DNA of 64,000 nucleotides. Origin: Candidatus Brockarchaeota archaeon. Its GTDB lineage: Archaea > Thermoproteota > EX4484-205 > JAAOZP01. The translations under genes and the position numbers were made by a program. This document shows positions 3,387 through 47,364 of the stretch, piece after piece; position 1 is the stretch's first letter; each line of letters opens with the position of its first letter. The DNA lies in contig JAFNIT010000005.1 in assembly GCA_017601345.1 (NCBI GenBank), positions 670-64,669 on the forward strand, given 5' to 3'. The notes under the pieces were generated by a model. The model had not been told where the DNA came from. It saw nothing but the letters and a program-made list of their open reading frames with translations, and did no database searches.

Positions 3387-4080
3387 TCCTCCTACTCATA
3401 ACGAATGATACCAACTCCTTCTTCTTGACTTCTGAAAGAGGCTTACCCTTGACGTAAAGTGCTCCTACTGGACAGACGGCTGAACATTTTCCGCAGGATG
3501 TGCATGATTCAGCAAAACCCCATTTGTCGTCGAGGTCAAAAATCACCTTCGAGTTCTTGCCTCTAAGCATGAGGTCTATCGCATGCACACCCTCAACCTC
3601 GTCGCAAACCCTTATGCAACGCGTGCAAAGTATGCATCTGTTCGGATCGTAGGCGAATCTTTCATGAGTGAGGTCCAGCTCATAATTGGTCCACTTCCTG
3701 TCGACTCTGAGATGGTCGACCCCCAGCTCAGTTGCAAGCTGCTGGAGTTCACAGTTCCCATTGGCTACGCAAACCGAACAGACGTGCGGTCTTTCAGCTA
3801 GCAGGAGTTCTATAGCCCATTTCCGATAACGTCTAAGCCTTTCAGAATCGGTTATGACTTCCATTCCTTCTGCAACAGGCGTCACGCAGGAAGCGAATAC
3901 TTTTGGTGAGCCCCTTATCTCGACGACGCAAACTCTACATCCTCCTAATGATGAAACGCCTTCAAGATAGCATAATGCTGGAATGTATATGTTGTTTTCC
4001 CTAGCAACTTTAAGTATGTTATCACCTTCTTTAGCAGCAACCTTCTTACCATCTATTGTAAGCTCTACCGTCTTACTCAA
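3367..4080 (-). CDS. hoxU: Diaphorase Fe-S subunit, NuoG N-terminal-like
   Basis: 2Fe-2S ferredoxin-like N-terminus ('GGCRVCVVE'), plus 'CILCTRCIRVCDE' and 'CTSCGKCSAVCPVGA' 4Fe-4S motifs. Overlaps hoxY by 20 nt. Confidence 0.85.
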   Translation of the reverse strand: MSKTVELTIDGKKVAAKEGDNILKVARENNIYIPALCYLEGVSSLGGCRVCVVEIRGSPKVFASCVTPVAEGMEVITDSERLRRYRKWAIELLLAERPHVCSVCVANGNCELQQLATELGVDHLRVDRKWTNYELDLTHERFAYDPNRCILCTRCIRVCDEVEGVHAIDLMLRGKNSKVIFDLDDKWGFAESCTSCGKCSAVCPVGALYVKGKPLSEVKKKELVSFVMSRRSEKTIG

Positions 4081-5735
4081 CTCCCTGCACCTCCACCATC
4101 TTTAAAACATTTTCCAGCAGGACACTTTTTCTCAACAATATGCGAAACATACTCGTCTCTGAAATACTTAAGCGTGGTGAGAGTCGGGTTGGGTGCTGTC
4201 TGACCTAGGCCGCATAAGCTGGCCTCCTTAATGAATTCGCAAAGATCTTCGACTTTATCTAGGTCCTGTATATCGCCCTCTCCCTGCGTAAAGCCGTCGA
4301 GAATCTTGTAAAGCTTGTAGAGACCTGCTCTACAGGGTGTGCATTTACCGCACGACTCGTCTACGCAGAATTCAGTGAAGAACTTAGCTGTGTCAACCAT
4401 GCAGGAAGTATCATCCAGCACAACTATGCCGCCGGAGCCCATTATCGCACCGGCTTTAGTTAGAGACTCGTAATCTATGGGAAGGTCTAGAAGTTGCTCG
4501 GGCAGGAAGCCCCCGGAGGGACCGCCAACTTGAACAGCTTTGAAGCGCCTGCCTGGCGGAACTCCCCCGCCTATTTCGAAAACAACCTCCCTAAGAGTTA
4601 TGCCCATCGGGACCTCGATCAACCCAGGGTTGTTAACCTTCCCCGTTAAGGAGAAGCATTTAGTACCAGTACAGTTCTTAGTCCCTATGCTTGAAAACCA
4701 TTCGCTGCCCTTGAGCAGTATGACTGGGATGTTTGCGAGTGTTTCAACGTTGTTTATCAGCGTAGGCTTACCCCATAGGCCTGATTGCGCTGGATAAGGT
4801 GGCCTAGGCCTAGGCATTGCTCTACGACCCTCGATTGAAGCGAGTATTGCTGTTTCCTCGCCTGCTACAAATGCCCCTGCCCCCAGCCTCAGTTCAATGT
4901 CGAAGCTGAAGGCTGTTTCGAAAATCTTCTCTCCCAATAGGCCCATTGACTTCGCTGCTTCAATAGCCTTCTTCAAAGTCTCAACCGCTAGGGGGTATTC
5001 GCTACGCACGTAAATGTAGCCCTTGCTCGCACCTACAGCATAAGCAGCTATAGTCATACCCTCTATTATTGCATGGGGGTCTGCTTCTGCTAGAGTGCGG
5101 TTCGCGAAAACACCCGGGTCGCCTTCATCGAGATTGGCTATTACGTATTTCGGAGAACCGGTTGCTCTCGCAACATATCTCCACTTTAAACCTGTTAAGA
5201 ATCCTGCTCCGCCCCTTCCCTTCAACCCGCTTAAAGCAACTTCCTCTATCACTCCCTCCGGAGTCATTCTGGTTAAAGCCTTTAGCAAAGCGTAGTAACC
5301 GCCTACAGCAATATAATCCTCTATTCTCAAAGGATCTATCTTGCCAGCATTTCTCAAAACTATTCTGAGCTGTTTCTTGAAGTATGCTTCGTTACCGTAA
5401 AGCATGCTTTTAACAGGCCTGTTGTTAACAATATGCTCTTTAACTATCTCCTTAGCTTTTTCGGGAGTAACGTTTTGATAAAGATAGTCGCCGGGCTCAA
5501 CCAAGACTGCGGGGGCTATTGAGCATGTTCCTATGCAGCCTGTCCTAGCTACGTAGCACTCTTCCTCAACCCCAGACTCCTTAACAGCATCCTTAAACGC
5601 ACTCAACACTTTTAAAGCGCCGAAAGGCATGCAGCCGCTTGAACAACATACGTTTATCCTATACCTGTAGGATTTGCGGAGCTCATCCTCCTTCTGAGCT
5701 AGATTACGTAACTCATCTGGCTTCAACCTTCTCAA
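4077..5735 (-). CDS. hoxF: Diaphorase NAD(P)H/FMN-binding subunit, NuoF-like
   Basis: 'GLKGRGGAGFLTGLKW' (NuoF FMN/NADH site) and 'ESCGKCTPCR' 4Fe-4S. N-terminal thioredoxin-like 2Fe-2S domain ('CCSSGC ... GCIGTCSIAP'). 4-nt overlap with hoxU. Confidence 0.9.
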   Translation of the reverse strand: MRRLKPDELRNLAQKEDELRKSYRYRINVCCSSGCMPFGALKVLSAFKDAVKESGVEEECYVARTGCIGTCSIAPAVLVEPGDYLYQNVTPEKAKEIVKEHIVNNRPVKSMLYGNEAYFKKQLRIVLRNAGKIDPLRIEDYIAVGGYYALLKALTRMTPEGVIEEVALSGLKGRGGAGFLTGLKWRYVARATGSPKYVIANLDEGDPGVFANRTLAEADPHAIIEGMTIAAYAVGASKGYIYVRSEYPLAVETLKKAIEAAKSMGLLGEKIFETAFSFDIELRLGAGAFVAGEETAILASIEGRRAMPRPRPPYPAQSGLWGKPTLINNVETLANIPVILLKGSEWFSSIGTKNCTGTKCFSLTGKVNNPGLIEVPMGITLREVVFEIGGGVPPGRRFKAVQVGGPSGGFLPEQLLDLPIDYESLTKAGAIMGSGGIVVLDDTSCMVDTAKFFTEFCVDESCGKCTPCRAGLYKLYKILDGFTQGEGDIQDLDKVEDLCEFIKEASLCGLGQTAPNPTLTTLKYFRDEYVSHIVEKKCPAGKCFKDGGGAGS

Positions 5736-36517: not shown

Positions 36518-36742
36518 TTGCTCAAAGCATACCTTCTTATAGTCTGCGAAGTAGGCTTAGAGAAGGATGTTGAAGAAACCATTCGTAAGGTTGAAAGCGT
36601 TACTAACGTGGATGTTGTCTACGGCGAGTACGACATAATAGCGACAGTAGAGGTTAACGATATTAAGCAGCTCGACAACGTTGTTACGCAGATAAGACGT
36701 ATAAAGGGAGTCTTAAGAACGATGACACTTCTCTGCGATTAA
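36518..36742 (+). CDS. Stand-alone RAM (Lrp/AsnC ligand-binding) domain protein
   Basis: 74 aa, 'AYLLIVCEVG ... VDVVYGEYDIIATVEV ... IRRIKGVLRTMTL'. Beta-alpha-beta-beta-alpha-beta RAM pattern without an HTH. Confidence 0.7.
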   Translation: MLKAYLLIVCEVGLEKDVEETIRKVESVTNVDVVYGEYDIIATVEVNDIKQLDNVVTQIRRIKGVLRTMTLLCD

Positions 36743-38482: not shown

Positions 38483-38728
38483 CTAAGCCTTAGCCTGCTG
38501 GACTGAGAGTACTACGCGGGTATCTGTCGTAGCAATAGACTCTACACTCCTTATCTTCAAGACTGTTTTCATCAACTTCTCAACATCCAGCACATCAACT
38601 CTTATCAAAAGATCTATGTCGCCAGTTAGCTCAATAACCTCCCTAACCTCCTCGATACTCAAAAGCTTCTGCATAACCCTCTCCCTGTTGAACCCCTTCG
38701 CTATCTTCGCTGTTACGAATGCCTGCAA
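38483..38728 (-). CDS. Stand-alone RAM domain protein
   Basis: 81 aa, 'VIELTGDIDLLIRVDV ... IRSVESIATTDTRVVL'. Confidence 0.7.
   Translation of the reverse strand: MQAFVTAKIAKGFNRERVMQKLLSIEEVREVIELTGDIDLLIRVDVLDVEKLMKTVLKIRSVESIATTDTRVVLSVQQAKA
38603..38633. repeat. 31-nt exact repeat, copy 1 (shared with 38920-38950)
   Basis: 'tatcaaaagatctatgtcgccagttagctca' read at both positions. Encodes 'ELTGDIDLLI' in two tandem RAM paralogs. Confidence 0.85.
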
Positions 38729-38805: not shown

Positions 38806-39039
38806 CTACTTAACCATGCGGGAGAGTACTATGCGTGTATCCGTCGACTCCACGCCTTTTATTTCAAGTATTTCGTCGACGATTCTTCTCAAATCGGTCT
38901 CTGAAGAAGCAGTGGCTTCTATCAAAAGATCTATGTCGCCAGTTAGCTCATAAACCTTCTTAACGCCCTTAACCTGTAGAACCTTCTCAATGTTCCCCTG
39001 GAAGCCGCTTGAAACCCTTACGAGTATTACCGCCTCCAA
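38806..39039 (-). CDS. Stand-alone RAM domain protein
   Basis: 77 aa, 'VYELTGDIDLLIEATA ... IKGVESTDTRIVL'. Tandem paralog of 38483-38728. Confidence 0.7.
   Translation of the reverse strand: MEAVILVRVSSGFQGNIEKVLQVKGVKKVYELTGDIDLLIEATASSETDLRRIVDEILEIKGVESTDTRIVLSRMVK
38920..38950. repeat. 31-nt exact repeat, copy 2 (shared with 38603-38633)
   Basis: Identical 31-mer to copy 1. The flanking sequence is diverged. Confidence 0.85.
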
Positions 39040-39134: not shown

Positions 39135-39545
39135 GTGTCTGAAGAGTTTGTTAAGATTAAAGATCTTAGTACCAACTCCAAGCACGTTAACCTTCTCGCC
39201 AAGGTGCTCTCCCTCTCCGAGACAAGGGAAGTGCCTGCCAGGTACGGGGGTTCGACAAACAAGGTTGCGGAAGCTAGAATAGGAGACGAAACCGGTACAA
39301 TACTTCTAACGCTCTGGAACGAGAACATAAATTTGGTTAAGCCGAATGACATCATAATGATTAAAAACGGTTACGTAAACGTGTACCGCAGAACCATGAG
39401 GCTTAACGTCGGCAAGTATGGTTCAATAGAGAAGAGCGATGCTAACATAGGGGATGTCGATACTTCTAATGACATGTCTGAGAAAGAGGTTGAGGGAGGC
39501 TACGGCGGCAGGAGGTTTAACCGTGGTCCTAGGAGGAGGTATTAA
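39135..39545 (+). CDS. ssb: Crenarchaeal-type single-OB-fold ssDNA-binding protein
   Basis: 'VAEARIGDETGTILLTLW' OB core as in Sulfolobus SSB, with a flexible RGG-like tail 'GGYGGRRFNRGPRRRY'. GTG start. Confidence 0.85.
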   Translation: MSEEFVKIKDLSTNSKHVNLLAKVLSLSETREVPARYGGSTNKVAEARIGDETGTILLTLWNENINLVKPNDIIMIKNGYVNVYRRTMRLNVGKYGSIEKSDANIGDVDTSNDMSEKEVEGGYGGRRFNRGPRRRY

Positions 39546-41417: not shown

Positions 41418-41473
41418 ACGGTGAAAATTTGCATTTGCAAACAACATAAATTGGCGGTTTTTCGAGAATTCAA

Positions 41474-42835
41474 GTGCGATGGAGAATGATTAAGAGCATG
41501 CTTAGAATAATAGCTTTCGCTGCAGTGCTTTTTGCGAGTATTATTGTAAATCGTTTTTTAGAGCGCTTATGGCTCTCTTTTACAGGCTTGGAGTCTAATG
41601 GTCTTTCAAGCCTATTCACATTACTCCTAATGGTATTCTTCTTCACGCTTCTACTACCGATTAAACACGAAAGCAGAATTAAGATGAACATGATGTTTAA
41701 GGAGGTCTCCATCTTCATACTCATCTGGATCGGCGCATCCTTCTTCATAGCCCTCCTGCATCAACCTAAGCATGTCTCCATAGGTTTGATTCCAGCAATA
41801 TCATATGCTTTATTAAAGCTTGTAAACCCGAGCTTCAGGTTAAGAATATTGCTTAAAGAACATTCCGAAGCCTCATTCCGTGGCACCATACTGATGTGGG
41901 TTGCACCAACTCCTGGAGTTTTGATTGCTCAAGACCTTGGTTTAAGAAGCATACTAAAAGTGTTAAGGGGTGAGGCGAGAATCGCTGTTAGCATCCCCGG
42001 GGAGATATTCATAAAATCTTGTAAGAACATTAGAAACATGGAGCTTAAGGGGAGCCTAGCCTCTTTTGTAAAAACAGTGTCGGATAATTGGAACCGTGAA
42101 GCAGCAATAGTTTGCGAAGCTAAGCCTGGGGAAGGTTTTTTCAAGATCTGGGTTAAAATAGCTTCAGACAATATTCAGGTTCTCAATGACATTACTAGAC
42201 GTTTTTCGAAGCTTGATGGGGGAGAGGACTTGAATTGGGCTTTGGAGAAATGGTTGTCGTTAAAACCATGTGTTAAGCCAATAATGTTTACTAATAACGG
42301 TGTTTCATTATCTCCGGAGACCGTTCCGGAGAGACTGCTTGTAGCCGGAAATGCTGAAGAGACTGAGAGATTTGCACTTAAGGCATGCTTGTCTCAGCTG
42401 AGAATTAATTCAAATGTTCTCATCATCGATGGCGAGGAGGATCCTTGTTTTGAAGAAAAAATTGAGGAAATACTGAGAGCAGAGGGTTTTAAACCCCTTA
42501 GACGCCAGCCTAAAGCTTTCAGGACTAGGGGAAGAATGGAAGTTATTCTCGTAAAGAAAACTGAATTAAACGGGAAGCTTATCGAAAAGGTTTCTTCAAA
42601 ACCTATTGTTGCCGCATGGTTAAAAGGCTGTTTAGAGGAGCCTGGGTTGAGTGCGCCGCTTAAAATTTTAACGTACAACATGCTGAGGTCTAAGCCAGTC
42701 TTAGAAGCAGACGGCCTAATACTCCTCAATCCTGACAGAGAACTCCTGGACAGTTTCGTATCGACGGGACAGAGTTTTTTGCTTCAAGGTAAGACTATAA
42801 TGGTTTCCGCCAGGGGGGTGGAGATACTCGCATGA
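41474..42835 (+). CDS. Polytopic membrane protein with a large soluble domain carrying a P-loop-like but Walker-A-less segment
   Basis: About 4 N-terminal hydrophobic helices. 'RLLVAGNAEETERFALKACLSQLRINSNVLIIDGEED'. GTG at 41474 or ATG at 41486/41498. Stop overlaps the next start (ATGA). Confidence 0.6.
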   Translation: MRWRMIKSMLRIIAFAAVLFASIIVNRFLERLWLSFTGLESNGLSSLFTLLLMVFFFTLLLPIKHESRIKMNMMFKEVSIFILIWIGASFFIALLHQPKHVSIGLIPAISYALLKLVNPSFRLRILLKEHSEASFRGTILMWVAPTPGVLIAQDLGLRSILKVLRGEARIAVSIPGEIFIKSCKNIRNMELKGSLASFVKTVSDNWNREAAIVCEAKPGEGFFKIWVKIASDNIQVLNDITRRFSKLDGGEDLNWALEKWLSLKPCVKPIMFTNNGVSLSPETVPERLLVAGNAEETERFALKACLSQLRINSNVLIIDGEEDPCFEEKIEEILRAEGFKPLRRQPKAFRTRGRMEVILVKKTELNGKLIEKVSSKPIVAAWLKGCLEEPGLSAPLKILTYNMLRSKPVLEADGLILLNPDRELLDSFVSTGQSFLLQGKTIMVSARGVEILA

Positions 42836-44070
42836 CACGTATTCTCTCAAAGGGGTGTGAAACCTTTTACCTGATGAGTAGAATAGGACTGGCTGGATTG
42901 AACTTTAAGAGAGCCCTTGTATTCTTGCTCTCAAGATTCTTCCGAGAATACAGGATAGTCCTGCTTGATTCGAGTGATGAATTCAGTTGCGCTGCAAGAA
43001 TTAGTGGAGCGAGATATTACAATGTTGCTGAACACAGCATTAACCCCGTTAAACCACCATGCTGGGAGGTGGTTGAGCAATATGTAGAATCCTTAGTAGA
43101 AGTGATCGATTACTGTTTCGGGACCTTTAATATGAAGAGCATTATTACTAAATCGTTTCTTAGCAGTCTTTCACCATCTTCAGAGACAACTATACCAGAG
43201 ATTACATCCAGGCTCGATTTTGAGAATCCTGAAGGAGGATTATCAATCTACACTCCTCTTGAGCCATTTACCTTTGGAACACTCAGAAGGGTCTTTGGCA
43301 GAAGGGAGGAACTTGATTTCAACGAAATTTTGGAGACGGGTATTATTTTCGACCTTTCAGGTCTTCCTACAGCTTCTTCAAAATTGTTCACAGCCCTGAT
43401 AGTCCTGAATAAGTTGATGTTCATGAAGCCTAAACATCCTACAGTCGTAGTAGTGACTTATCCCAGCATGATTTGGCCTAAGAGTAAGAGACGCGACGCG
43501 GCTCAGCTCCATGTGGAACAAGTCATGCTAGAAGAATTGGAGAGAAAAGGCTTTGTAATAGTCTTCGCAGAGAAAACCTTCTCAGAATTGTCTGAGAGAA
43601 TTATATATGGACTTGACGCAATCGTTTTCTCCCCTCCTTCAGAAGTCCTTGACCCTTGGAATCCTTGGGGCTTATACACGAGGCTGGAGAAAGAGATGAC
43701 AGAATGCTCTGCGGTAATTTTGAACAGAGGGGGCGAAATAAAGCCGCTTACAATTCCTGCGAACATTATGATAAAGCCGTTGGATGATGAGGAGCGTGAG
43801 AAGCTTAAGCCTGCCCTCAGGGTTTTCAAAGAGTCAGATAGGTTGAGGGAAATTCTCAACGAGGATTATGAGTCCGGGATGAGAATAATAAACAGGTTGA
43901 AAGAACTCGATGGCAGAGCTGTTTTAAACAGGCTTGTCGAGGAAGTGAGGTCAACGATAGGAGCTAGCGGGCTTAAGGCACTTGCCACATTATTAAGGTA
44001 TGGATACTTGAGGCAGGCTCGTGAAGGAGATGAGCAATACATCGTCCTTTCCCACGGTGATTGGGAATGA
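42832..44070 (+). CDS. HerA/FtsK/VirB4-like (DUF87-like) protein with degenerate Walker A/B and a C-terminal winged-helix-like domain
   Basis: 'RIGLAGLNFKRALVFLLSRFFREYRIVLLDSSDEFS', 'INPVKP', 'IIFDLSGLPTASSKLFTALIVLNKL' and 'VVVVTYPSMIWP'. No GK[ST] anywhere in the protein. Confidence 0.55.
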   Translation: MTRILSKGCETFYLMSRIGLAGLNFKRALVFLLSRFFREYRIVLLDSSDEFSCAARISGARYYNVAEHSINPVKPPCWEVVEQYVESLVEVIDYCFGTFNMKSIITKSFLSSLSPSSETTIPEITSRLDFENPEGGLSIYTPLEPFTFGTLRRVFGRREELDFNEILETGIIFDLSGLPTASSKLFTALIVLNKLMFMKPKHPTVVVVTYPSMIWPKSKRRDAAQLHVEQVMLEELERKGFVIVFAEKTFSELSERIIYGLDAIVFSPPSEVLDPWNPWGLYTRLEKEMTECSAVILNRGGEIKPLTIPANIMIKPLDDEEREKLKPALRVFKESDRLREILNEDYESGMRIINRLKELDGRAVLNRLVEEVRSTIGASGLKALATLLRYGYLRQAREGDEQYIVLSHGDWE

Positions 44071-44927
44071 GGAGAATACTCACGGGAATAAGGTCTCTGG
44101 ACGATCTTACCGGCGGTTTGCCTACCGGTGTTTCAAACCTAGTTTACGGTAGTCCTGCAACAGGAAAAACCAGCCTCTCAATGACTTTGGTGGCTGAATC
44201 GCTTAAAAACGCAAGGGATAAGGAGGTTGTGATAGCAGTTTTAACGGAGAGCTGGGACATGGATCGTTTAAGAACAATATGTGCGAGAAAAGGCGTTAAA
44301 CAAGATTCTTTAAACAGGATCAAGACTTATGAGGCAAATAGCTTCGGCGAGCAGCATAAGATAATAACTGAGGTCGTGCCCAGGGATGTGGAGAAGAACG
44401 ATTGGGTGCCGGCGCTGATAATTGTCGATTCCCTCGTTCCGCATTACCATGCTCAACTGCTTAACACCCCTCTCCAACACTTGGCTTCGAAGGCAAGAGA
44501 GTTCCAAGGGAAGCTCTCCCTAGAGATCAACAATCTGGTTAAAATGGCTGCCGGATACGAGTCCCTTCTAATAGTAAACAGTTGGCGCCGCAGTAGTGCT
44601 GGCCGAAGCTTCCAAGAGAAGTGGAGGAAAGACGTAGTGGGAGGCTTAAAAGACAATGATGTTCTGATAGACCCTGAGGCAGGCTTCGGCTCTAGGGAGT
44701 TCGATGTAATAGGTGGGCAACACCTCGTTTACATGAGCAAGACTGTTATTAGAATGGTTTCAACAAGCATCAGTGAGAATATTAAAGCAGTTATTATGGA
44801 GAAAGCTCTCTCAAGACCTACGATGCTATGCTGCTTGGTGAAAATATCCGAGGCCGGTATTGAAACATATGAAGGGAAACCGGCTCCGGTGGGCGAGGTG
44901 ATTAGGAGGGAGATAATTAAGGATTAG
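44067..44927 (+). CDS. RadA/RadB (Rad51/RecA-superfamily) paralog ATPase
   Basis: 'LDDLTGGLPTGVSNLVYGSPATGKTSL' (Walker A), 'LIIVDSL' (Walker B), 'LLIVNSW' and 'GGQHLVYMSKTVIRM'. ATG at 44067 overlaps the upstream stop (ATGA); TTG at 44061 is also in frame. Confidence 0.75.
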   Translation: MRRILTGIRSLDDLTGGLPTGVSNLVYGSPATGKTSLSMTLVAESLKNARDKEVVIAVLTESWDMDRLRTICARKGVKQDSLNRIKTYEANSFGEQHKIITEVVPRDVEKNDWVPALIIVDSLVPHYHAQLLNTPLQHLASKAREFQGKLSLEINNLVKMAAGYESLLIVNSWRRSSAGRSFQEKWRKDVVGGLKDNDVLIDPEAGFGSREFDVIGGQHLVYMSKTVIRMVSTSISENIKAVIMEKALSRPTMLCCLVKISEAGIETYEGKPAPVGEVIRREIIKD

Positions 44928-44969
44928 AAGGAGGAAAACAATTATATACCAGTAAAACAGTACTCATTC

Positions 44970-46857: not shown

Positions 46858-47364
46858 TTGGAGAAAGAAGGCGGAGAACAACTGGACTTGGAAAGGCTTA
46901 GAATGATCGAGATTGCTGCAAACATTCATAGGGTTAAGATAATGATGGAATTGTTTAGGAGCGAGGGTACGATAACCTCGCTTTCAAGAACCCTAGGATA
47001 TTCTAGGCAGTTGGTGAAGCATCACTTGGAGACGCTTAGCAGGGGTGGGCTTGTCTCCAAGAGGAGAGTGGGAAATATGGAGGTCTATAGCATTACTGAC
47101 AGCGGTAGGATAATACTTTCCGAAGTACTGAAGATACATGCGGAAGTGGGAAGGACGAGCAGCGAGACGCGCATGCCGGTTTCAGAGGAGAGTAAGGCAA
47201 AGCCTAGTGTGAAATATGTTTCAGTAATCGCGGGAACCGTCACCGTAGTAATTGCCCTTGTTAAAGGAATTGCTGGAAACCAACCTCTATGGATATTGGG
47301 CGGATTTCTCCTGGGTGCTTTTATTTACGTTATTGTTTCCAAGCTCATCCAGGTTCTAACATAG
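46858..47364 (+). CDS. ArsR-like winged-helix regulator with a C-terminal membrane anchor
   Basis: '[42 protein letters not shown]' wHTH, then a linker and two hydrophobic segments ('[15 protein letters not shown]', '[17 protein letters not shown]'). Confidence 0.6.

Follow-up and report, generated by a model that had tools for sequence, protein, structure and literature searches.

In the Sulfolobales, DNA is imported by the Ced system, in which CedB (VirB4-like) and CedD (VirD4-like) are membrane-bound HerA/FtsK ATPases that are both needed for import (PMC11823120, PMC11868833). We analyzed a stretch of 64,000 nucleotides from a Candidatus Brockarchaeota archaeon (contig JAFNIT010000005.1, positions 670 to 64,669), which we call the window, and found that it contains three adjoining genes for which Ced/Ted appears to be the nearest functional analogue. 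They encode a membrane protein (P1), a HerA/FtsK-type protein that has lost its P-loop (P2), and an intact RadA/RadB-type ATPase (P3). CedA has 6-7 transmembrane helices (PMC11823120), whereas P1 has 4. The genes of this trio, with protein lengths in amino acids (aa), are as follows.

41474 to 42835, plus strand: gene 1, encoding P1 (453 aa, GTG start), the membrane subunit; an ATG at 41486 is a possible true start.
42832 to 44070, plus strand: gene 2, encoding P2 (412 aa), a HerA/FtsK-fold protein with no P-loop and with a C-terminal winged-helix-like domain.
44067 to 44927, plus strand: gene 3, encoding P3 (286 aa from the ATG), a RadA/RadB-type single-domain RecA-family ATPase.

The preliminary description of this DNA had read the trio as three co-directional open reading frames (ORFs) that are joined by ATGA start/stop overlaps and form one coupled unit, and both points held. 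The ORFs lie on the plus strand at the coordinates above with ATGA at 42832-42835 (P1/P2) and 44067-44070 (P2/P3), the overlaps are kept among orthologs, and the three genes are the sole neighbors conserved over six divergent lineages. The P1/P2 ATGA overlap occurs in 32/32 Brockarchaeota-like trios (window included), and the P2/P3 junction is -4 in 20 of these 32 and at most +6 bp in the rest, indicating that the overlaps are a conserved feature and not chance. The order P1-P2-P3 was found in all 16 complete Brockarchaeota-like loci on one-genome-per-species contigs and in 15 further loci (31/31), and the trio is single-copy and present in every sampled Brockarchaeota-like genome. The closest relatives of all three proteins come from hot-spring metagenome-assembled genomes (MAGs) labeled Thermoproteota, Crenarchaeota or Candidatus Brockarchaeota, with one contig (L007, JAWCDE010000004.1) encoding proteins 91-97% identical to those of the window. 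The GC content of the trio (0.42-0.47) is in line with the remainder of the window and its composition is ordinary.

The same arrangement occurs outside Brockarchaeota. Both distant relatives of P2 lie in it, a metagenome scan with a P3 profile added twelve more loci with 42-45% P3 identity, and look-ups of P3 relatives added another four; over the outside lineages P3 identity is 37-47%. At every locus long enough, a transmembrane protein is followed by a Walker-less HerA-like protein of 403-513 aa and a RadA-like protein of 284-323 aa, with genes that overlap or nearly abut. Co-conservation beyond this genome, which the preliminary description had proposed to survey, was found in five outside groups with the same gene order:

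Group (a): L006, L039, L049 (NCBI label Candidatus Bathyarchaeia); Bathyarchaeia-type, with a Walker-less gene 1.
Group (b): L037, with a dead gene 1.
Group (c): L050 and L051.
Group (d), which we call variant B: L040-L047 and L005, with a live gene 1.
Group (e): L052, with a live gene 1.

Clustering of all neighbors left only the three trio genes common to the groups.

Searches with the single P2 sequence found no match in Pfam (E<=1), NCBIfam, PADLOC or the PDB sequences. Among 5.8 billion sequences its homologs form 33 clusters of about 410 aa (one is a 300-aa fragment) that are at least 52% identical and all Brockarchaeota-like, and the mean column identity of the alignment is 72%. We modeled P2 from this family alignment with AlphaFold2 (AF2; pLDDT 85.9, pTM 0.81). 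Comparison of the model with PDB structures by Foldseek gave HerA from S. solfataricus as the best match (4d2i, E 2.6e-8). Other matches were the HerA proteins of SIR2-HerA and DUF4297-HerA and T. kodakarensis HerA-NurA (9x1m, 8xav, 8wld and 8zir are listed among the best), VirB4 (4ag6, TM-score 0.51/0.56), and DndH-C (TM-score 0.49/0.54). When compared with viral structures, P2 matched the same superfamily (HerA-like, conjugal transfer and packaging ATPases) with none nearer than cellular HerA, and the model gives no sign of a recent viral origin. A P2 profile run against 1.84 billion representative proteins returned ten matches in all, own family included. Those outside the family were two Walker-less proteins (P0060, P0061) and three GKT/GKS proteins called DUF87 by Pfam, and the profile reaches bona fide DUF87 (PF01935) proteins (P0062, E 8.8e-7; P0063, E 1.7e-6). 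Three features of P2 were located:

42886 to 42912, plus strand: degenerate Walker A site GLAGLNFKR (aa 19-27), where active relatives have G(L/M)SG(F/Y)GKT.
43444 to 43467, plus strand: Walker-B-equivalent strand VVVVTYPS (aa 205-212), in which P211 and S212 are invariant and the acidic pair is missing.
43831 to 44049, plus strand: probable winged helix-turn-helix (aa 334-406), modeled as helix, strand, helix, helix and β-hairpin.

In a joint alignment, every gene-2 protein from all lineages has a 3-residue deletion at the Walker A site, and the position of the Walker A Lys is an invariant Phe25 in the Brockarchaeota family. GK[ST] occurs nowhere in P2 and the Walker A pattern GxxxxGK[ST] in 0/29 family members. 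The strand VVVVTYPS lies opposite VVVLEEA, LLIIEEA and VIVMDEA of active DUF87 proteins, and the equivalent element reads IVDSPE or LLDSAE in the distant gene-2 lineages. Gene 2 lost its P-loop before the known lineages diverged. The fold matches, the profile link to DUF87, the P-loop deletion and the replaced Walker B all agree with the earlier assignment of P2 as a Walker-less HerA/FtsK/VirB4-type protein, and the motifs quoted for it are highly conserved. A HAS-barrel domain is absent, as only 16 residues precede strand 1, which starts at residue 17.

A C-terminal winged helix had also been proposed for P2. In the AF2 model the tail, comprising the final 75 residues, consists of helices at 334-358, 365-375 and 378-389 and strands at 362-364, 393-398 and 401-406, and the pattern L..L.RxxYLK...G...L.L is common to the tails of several lineages. 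Variant-B gene-2 tails have sub-threshold Pfam matches to HTH_34 (E 0.04-0.056) and RQC (E 0.026), and the tail of P0064, an active DUF87 relative that the P2 profile matches weakly, has sub-threshold matches to HTH_45 and CggR_N. From this predicted topology, together with the sub-threshold matches of related tails, the P2 tail is probably a winged helix.

P3 is the only one of the three proteins in the window with intact catalytic motifs. Pfam Rad51 (PF08423) matches aa 3-190 with 28.7 bits, above the gathering cut-off of 22, and the matches to KaiC (PF06745, above cut-off) and DnaB_C are confined to the N-terminus, at aa 6-61 and aa 4-90, respectively. Scores against the more specific models were 68.1 bits for RadB TIGR02237 (cut-off 172.4) and 46.3 for NF006861 (cut-off 278), 36.6 for RadA TIGR02236 (cut-off 361) and 40.9 for NF003301 (cut-off 259), 14 for ArlH NF052589 (cut-off 215), and 33 for KaiC_arch_4 (cut-off 248). 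A profile of the P3 family matches the ATPase core of P. furiosus RadA (aa 3-179, 66 bits), T. kodakarensis RadB (58 bits), and KaiC over the first ~50-57 residues only. Among PDB sequences, RadB 2cvf aligns to P3 in both halves and RadA 4a6p over aa 3-177. At the residue level, LTE of P3 is opposite (ID)TE of RadA, ALIIVDSLVPHYHAQ is opposite LLIVDSLTSHFRSE, LIIVDSL is opposite RadA LLIVDSL, and the tail GGQHL...ISEAGIE matches the C-terminal portion of RadB. The first residues of P3 already belong to the ATPase core, residue 3 lying opposite residue 6 of the RadA core, so P3 has neither a helix-hairpin-helix (HhH) domain nor a polymerization linker. As to its start codon, the first listed is TTG 44061 and the orthologs favor ATG 44067. 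The following elements were located:

44148 to 44171, plus strand: Walker A GSPATGKT (aa 28-35), kept in 6/7 aligned orthologs.
44412 to 44435, plus strand: Walker B strand ALIIVDSL, with D121 invariant.
44583 to 44726, plus strand: enlarged L2-equivalent region ending in GGQHL (aa 173-220), with a lineage-specific conserved insert of ~25 residues.

The P3 ortholog on variant-B contig L005 (2207-2908) reads GNPSTAKT, with Ala for the second Walker A Gly and the other catalytic positions intact. T60-E61 are invariant and lie opposite the TE of the RadA IDTE strand, the Glu of this pair being the catalytic residue. The insert region has no counterpart in the RadA or RadB alignments, and W173, S176, A178, S181, F182, R187, D202, E204, G206, R210, D213 and G216-L220 within it are invariant across lineages. 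In a search of 5.8 billion proteins the P3 family formed a closed clade at 253-547 bits, with euryarchaeal RadB next at no more than 69 bits. Sso2452 matched marginally (E 0.002, N-terminus only) and PADLOC gave only mad8 (E 7e-4) and IetA (E 5e-3), which is generic P-loop similarity. NCBI labels members of the family only as 'ATPase domain-containing protein' or 'hypothetical'. The preliminary description had called P3 an intact RadA/RadB-type ATPase, and with Walker A and B and the element GGQHLVYMSKT present and conserved and Rad51 above its gathering score, we agree. Judged by these alignments, P3 is a distinct, intact RadA/RadB-type paralog and not an equivalog of RadA, RadB, KaiC or ArlH.

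P1 is the fastest-evolving member of the trio. Its homologs form 23 clusters, all Brockarchaeota-like, with 34-91% identity, and single-sequence searches found no match in Pfam or the PDB. Two library matches were marginal: NCBIfam RdrD (E 0.44 and 10 bits, the cut-off being 230) and PADLOC ZorD (E 0.056). Called orthologs start with MIK... or MFR..., the Met matching ATG 41486, 12 nt downstream of GTG 41474, so the true start may be ATG 41486. At 41445-41452, some 26 nt before position 41474, the sequence is A/T-rich (CATAAATT); a leaderless GTG start and a start at ATG 41486 are both possible. The AF2 model (pLDDT 81.6, pTM 0.65) divides the protein into these parts:

41474 to 41824, plus strand: N-terminal membrane domain of four long helices (aa 2-37, 44-60, 65-94 and 100-117) with a conserved TGLDSNGLSSL loop.
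41843 to 42256, plus strand: middle α/β domain (aa 124-261), with no significant fold or profile match.
42326 to 42832, plus strand: C-terminal Rossmann-like domain (aa 285-453) of alternating β/α elements, which are modeled over aa 287-451, probably a shrunken HerA/FtsK-type domain without a P-loop.
42332 to 42442, plus strand: Walker-A-equivalent strand-loop-helix-strand RLLVAGNAEETERFAL...VLIIDGEED, in register with HMLLVGDKSSGKTRFAQ...VVIILGPHEEY of variant-B gene 1; suggestive only.

The modeled helices (aa 2-117) followed by ~335 soluble residues fit the earlier reading of about four N-terminal helices and a soluble part, and G38, G43, L44 and S46 are conserved. With Foldseek the best match to P1 was KaiC CI (E 3.7e-3, prob 0.97), followed by F1 α/β, VirB11, EpsE and SsaN, all of them ASCE ATPases. 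The matches to the C-terminal domain are weak (E 4e-3 to 6e-2, TM-score ~0.2-0.36), none falling below E 1e-3. Pfam, NCBIfam and Foldseek revealed no sensory or kinase domain. The segment RLLVAGNAEETERFALKACLSQLRINSNVLIIDGEED, in which the preliminary description saw the layout of a P-loop core, is present, a conserved GxxxxGK[ST] is absent, and on alignment neither P1 nor P2 has a canonical P-loop. We considered the 'GKT' at P1 aa 439-441 as a Walker A motif and rejected it for its wrong spacing, its non-conserved Lys, its helix-loop-strand instead of strand-loop-helix setting, and its position 12 residues before the C-terminus; two P1 orthologs fit the Walker A pattern there by chance. The layout stood as described, and the further suggestion that it hides a dead P-loop core came out as plausible, given a weak in-register alignment (hhalign P ~0.008-0.04) and RecA/ASCE fold matches at E ~4e-3.

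What P1 may once have been is suggested by gene 1 elsewhere. Gene 1 starts with transmembrane helices in all lineages. In groups (d) and (e) it encodes 668-961 aa, with the N-terminal transmembrane segments leading through a middle region into a complete ATPase (LLVGDKSSGKT ... VVMMIEDADE). In Pfam these variant-B and L052 proteins match DUF87, with E as low as 3.6e-18, and exceed the cut-off of TrwB_AAD_bind. BLASTP clusters L052 gene 1 with gene-2 proteins and the variant-B ATPase domain aligns with Brockarchaeota P2 (hhalign E 2.6e-4), which makes genes 1 and 2 paralogs. An alignment of 275 columns links Brockarchaeota P1 to the Walker-less gene-1 product of group (a) (hhalign prob 93%, E 3e-7); by this profile comparison the two are homologous. 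With live variant-B gene 1 the values were E 0.041 for whole proteins and 0.0078 for trimmed domains, the aligned segment being the Walker A region, and comparisons of the P1 family with P2, variant-B gene 1 and the L005 fragment were not significant. We consider it probable that Brockarchaeota P1 is a decayed membrane HerA/FtsK motor on the strength of the weak in-register alignment, the same operon position, the same N-terminal membrane anchor and the ASCE-like fold matches. In a rough neighbor-joining tree of P3 rooted with RadB, L052 (live gene 1) is basal and variant B (live) and L037 (dead) are joined with 99% bootstrap, a topology that implies at least two independent losses of the gene-1 motor; its deeper nodes are poorly supported.

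Pairwise dN/dS values against four relatives were 0.18-0.29 for P1, 0.11-0.16 for P2 and 0.03-0.10 for P3, comparable to those of the neighboring inositol-3-phosphate synthase gene (INO1; 0.04-0.14). By these ratios all three genes, the Walker-less ones included, are kept by purifying selection, and the trio passes down the lineages as one unit. The divergence of the trio follows that of neighboring housekeeping genes.

We tentatively favor, with a confidence somewhat short of even, the reading that the trio forms one membrane-associated, DNA-handling complex descended from a HerA/FtsK-type membrane translocase. The ancestral complex would have been an FtsK/VirD4/CedD-type membrane translocase with a catalytically dead partner ring touching DNA. 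P1, with four transmembrane helices and a decayed ATPase-like domain, would anchor a P2 ring or hetero-ring at the inner membrane face, and the P2 winged helix would bind DNA. P3, the only subunit here predicted to hydrolyze ATP, would bind this scaffold and either act on the bound DNA or switch the scaffold, with precedents in the RadB-type mediators of recombination and in ArlH, a KaiC-like protein that acts on ArlI. The likeliest job would be with DNA at the membrane, either receiving and processing incoming DNA for recombination or tethering or segregating chromosomal DNA. Where the gene-1 motor is live, the complex probably still translocates DNA. In Brockarchaeota, where that motor seems to have decayed, it would probably be a P3-driven tether or regulator, more likely to tether, present or gate DNA than to pump it. 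DNA is preferred as the substrate on indirect grounds throughout: P2 ends in a probable winged helix, P3 is of the RadA/RadB kind, and live gene 1 has VirD4/TrwB-like matches.

Several points weigh against this reading. Statistics do not establish P1 as a homolog of the live gene-1 ATPases (hhalign prob 1-5%). We infer DNA binding by the putative P2 winged helix from topology only, and neither the P2 tail nor seven related tails match a winged-helix Pfam family above threshold. The L1/L2 regions of P3 are unlike those of RadA, so P3 cannot be assumed to bind DNA. The absence of both HerA-type P-loops here argues against translocation and fits a purely regulatory role equally well. Finally, across lineages the trio is not accompanied by a gene for a pilin, a VirB6/CedA-like channel, a nuclease or any other DNA-processing protein.

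The genes around the trio change between two Brockarchaeota clades while the trio stays whole. In most of one clade, to which the window belongs, it is flanked by a GT2 glycosyltransferase gene and INO1; the sublineage L004/L014 has a phosphofructokinase gene downstream in place of INO1, and in the second clade the trio adjoins an ArsR-type regulator and an intact DUF87 ATPase. INO1 was examined as a possible operon member and set aside, being missing downstream in the second clade and in L004/L014 and having a TATA-like box of its own. This box, TTATATA at 44942-44948, lies 22-28 nt upstream of the INO1 ATG (44970) and resembles an archaeal TATA box, suggesting that the trio transcript ends after 44927. 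An ArsR/HTH_5-type winged-helix protein with two C-terminal transmembrane helices is encoded at 46858-47364 (plus strand) of the window and at 3747-4283 (minus strand) of L001. In both clades its gene lies no more than ~2 kb from the trio, though position and orientation vary and the other flanks are unshared, and it may regulate the trio. In the second clade it stands beside the gene for an intact 489-aa DUF87/HerA-type ATPase (GATGSGKS, VIDEG), ~1 kb upstream of the trio (L001 2123-3592, minus strand; also L015-L022, L031, L032 and L034). This ATPase is 92-99% conserved within the clade and has no copy in the 64-kb window.

Farther upstream in the clade of the window are three conserved stand-alone ORFs of ~75-80 aa with an AsnC_trans_reg (RAM) domain and a crenarchaeal-type OB-fold SSB gene (36518-36742, plus strand; 38483-38728 and 38806-39039, minus strand; 39135-39545, plus strand), with Pfam families taken from orthologous loci. 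At L023 (5042-7305, CALIBN010000029.1), from the same MAG as L020 with its intact trio, nothing of the trio is left after the GT2 gene except pieces of P1 (aa 142-219) and P3 (aa 181-282), representing either a decayed second copy at the position used in the first clade or a chimeric bin. Directly downstream of the most divergent trio, L052 (6601-9495, plus strand) encodes a 964-aa protein with HTH_3, MarR/Replic_Relax-like winged-helix and LAGLIDADG_3 domains, followed by a YaaC-like gene; these surroundings may be a mobile-element context. Scans of the 64-kb window found no tRNA genes and no Rfam family at its gathering threshold, and scans for bacterial-type promoters and terminators, which are irrelevant to an archaeon, stayed at chance level.

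The alternative that survives best is that the trio is a signaling or transcription-control module, with P1 as a membrane sensor, P2 as a winged-helix transcription factor that uses its dead NTPase as an oligomerization or ligand platform, and P3 as a KaiC/RadB-like switch that sets the state of P2. KaiC-like ATPases have reportedly been proposed as archaeal signaling hubs by Makarova and colleagues in 2017. Such a module would suit a trio whose sole live NTPase here is a small RecA-family protein with an N-terminus above the Pfam KaiC cut-off, whose P2 tail resembles a winged helix, and which has a membrane-anchored ArsR-type regulator within ~2 kb in both clades. However, P3 fits RadA/RadB better and over its full length, KaiC covering only ~55 N-terminal residues; P1 showed no sensory or kinase domain in library and fold searches; and gene 1 in two lineages is a complete membrane-anchored DUF87/TrwB-like ATPase, which is the architecture of a translocase and not of a sensor. 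We regard this alternative as unlikely.

Anti-virus or anti-plasmid defense on a HerA-type platform, as in SIR2-HerA and DUF4297-HerA, or a domesticated remnant of conjugative or mobile-element DNA transfer, is improbable. The nearest folds to P2 do include the HerA proteins of those two systems as well as VirB4 and DndH, gene 1 evolves fast, the L052 trio lies beside the 964-aa Replic_Relax/MarR-like, HTH_3 and LAGLIDADG protein, and an AbiEii gene is found ~5 kb from the L050 trio. Yet no effector (nuclease, SIR2 or toxin) is linked across lineages, and PADLOC was silent on P2, gave ZorD at E 0.056 for P1, and was marginal for P3. The trio also behaves like its housekeeping neighbors in divergence, is single-copy in every sampled Brockarchaeota-like genome, and has an ordinary base composition. 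A tblastn search of 72,556 plasmids found P3 relatives on none of them, and L052 gene 1 had only generic DUF87 matches there (~25% identity). Among the roles raised in the preliminary description (uptake, repair coupling and defense), defense is the least supported.

Least probable of all, by a little, is an ATPase complex for protein secretion or surface-structure assembly like T7SS EccCa/EccCb or ArlH/ArlI/ArlJ: the combination of an FtsK/HerA-type subunit anchored in the membrane, a degenerate paralog encoded separately after it, and a small RecA-family ATPase does parallel the split EccC, with its stacked live and degenerate FtsK-like domains, and the ArlH-ArlI pairing, but FtsK_SpoIIIE, ArlI and ArlJ do not match at threshold, ArlH scores 14 bits against 215, a pilin, archaellin or substrate gene is not linked in any lineage, and nucleic acid, not protein, is the substrate suggested by the probable winged-helix tail and the RadA/RadB-type partner. 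What weight is left falls to explanations other than those weighed here.

Returning to the membrane-associated DNA-handling complex, its components would, if they act as one, represent a new arrangement in which a membrane-anchored HerA/FtsK pair with one member always dead is tied to a RadA/RadB-type ATPase. In uncultured Thermoproteota, for which, to our knowledge, little is known beyond the Ced/Ted systems of cultured relatives, it would be a candidate for the machinery that takes up or segregates DNA or carries out membrane-linked recombination. A stronger statement is possible but rather doubtful: that this is a new, vertically inherited archaeal machine in which a RadB-like ATPase is obligately coupled to a live and a permanently dead membrane-anchored HerA/FtsK pair, and in some lineages took over as the only engine once the motor had decayed, which happened in at least two independent events. 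If true, DNA at the membrane would be joined to recombination proteins in a new way, and the lineages would form a natural series leading from motor to pseudo-motor. Gene 1 is a live motor in variant B and L052 and a dead one in L037, the Bathyarchaeia-type trios and Brockarchaeota, with more than one apparent loss, and this range of states is a natural experiment on how hexameric motors become scaffolds or pseudo-enzymes. For annotation, P3 offers a new and cleanly separated RadA-paralog clade outside RadB and aRadC. The literature that we searched holds no description of the trio, although an earlier mention in arCOG surveys is possible. The preliminary description could not match it to a named system, and neither could we using Pfam, NCBIfam, PADLOC, PDB sequence and fold searches, and the literature.

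Among known systems, ArlH-ArlI-ArlJ follows a similar logic, in which a small ATPase of the RecA/KaiC family acts upon a hexameric protein with an ATPase fold that docks to a membrane protein. However, the HerA/FtsK fold of P2 is not of the GspE/VirB11 type of ArlI, P1 has four transmembrane helices and no ArlJ match, and archaellin genes are absent at the locus. P3 also fails a full-length model match to the KaiC of clocks and to ArlH. With HerA-NurA (Mre11-Rad50), SIR2-HerA and DUF4297-HerA the trio has only the fold of P2 in common (4d2i, 9x1m, 8xav, 8wld, 8zir). Unlike the HerA of these systems, P2 has no P-loop, Walker B or HAS-barrel and carries a probable C-terminal winged helix instead. 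No NurA, Mre11, Rad50, SIR2 or DUF4297 partner accompanies it (its neighbors in the window are GT2 and INO1), and a linked nuclease is absent from every lineage.

FtsK/SpoIIIE proteins have about four N-terminal transmembrane helices, a linker, a motor core and a C-terminal winged helix (γ domain). The trio has the same domain order, but split over genes 1 and 2. Pfam FtsK_SpoIIIE gives no match at threshold, the core next to the probable winged helix lacks Walker A and B, the closest folds are HerA and VirB4 and not FtsK, and there is an extra RecA-family subunit. Like RadB of Euryarchaeota and aRadC/Sso2452, P3 is a bare RecA/RadA core without HhH, with intact Walker A and B and a RadA-type TE. 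RadB is its nearest sequence relative, aligning over both halves (T. kodakarensis). P3 differs from RadB and RadA in scoring below the equivalog cut-offs, in forming a separate clade (253 vs 69 bits), in its L2 insert of ~25 residues, and in always following two HerA-type genes.

Ced/Ted comes closest in function. In contrast to Ced/Ted, neither a CedA/VirB6-like channel nor a CedA1/TedC pilin is encoded within 6-7 kb of the trio in any lineage, and one of the paralogs of the trio is always P-loop-less, as both are in Brockarchaeota; CedB and CedD are compared here by description. The obligate RadA/RadB-type third gene is not among the Ced components named (PMC11823120, PMC11868833). Like the trio, Ced/Ted (CedB and CedD; TedD in Thermoproteales) is archaeal, from Thermoproteota, and has a paralogous HerA/FtsK pair of which at least one member has an N-terminal transmembrane anchor. 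Variant-B and L052 gene 1 match DUF87 and TrwB/VirD4-type coupling models, the class proposed for CedD (PMC11823120).

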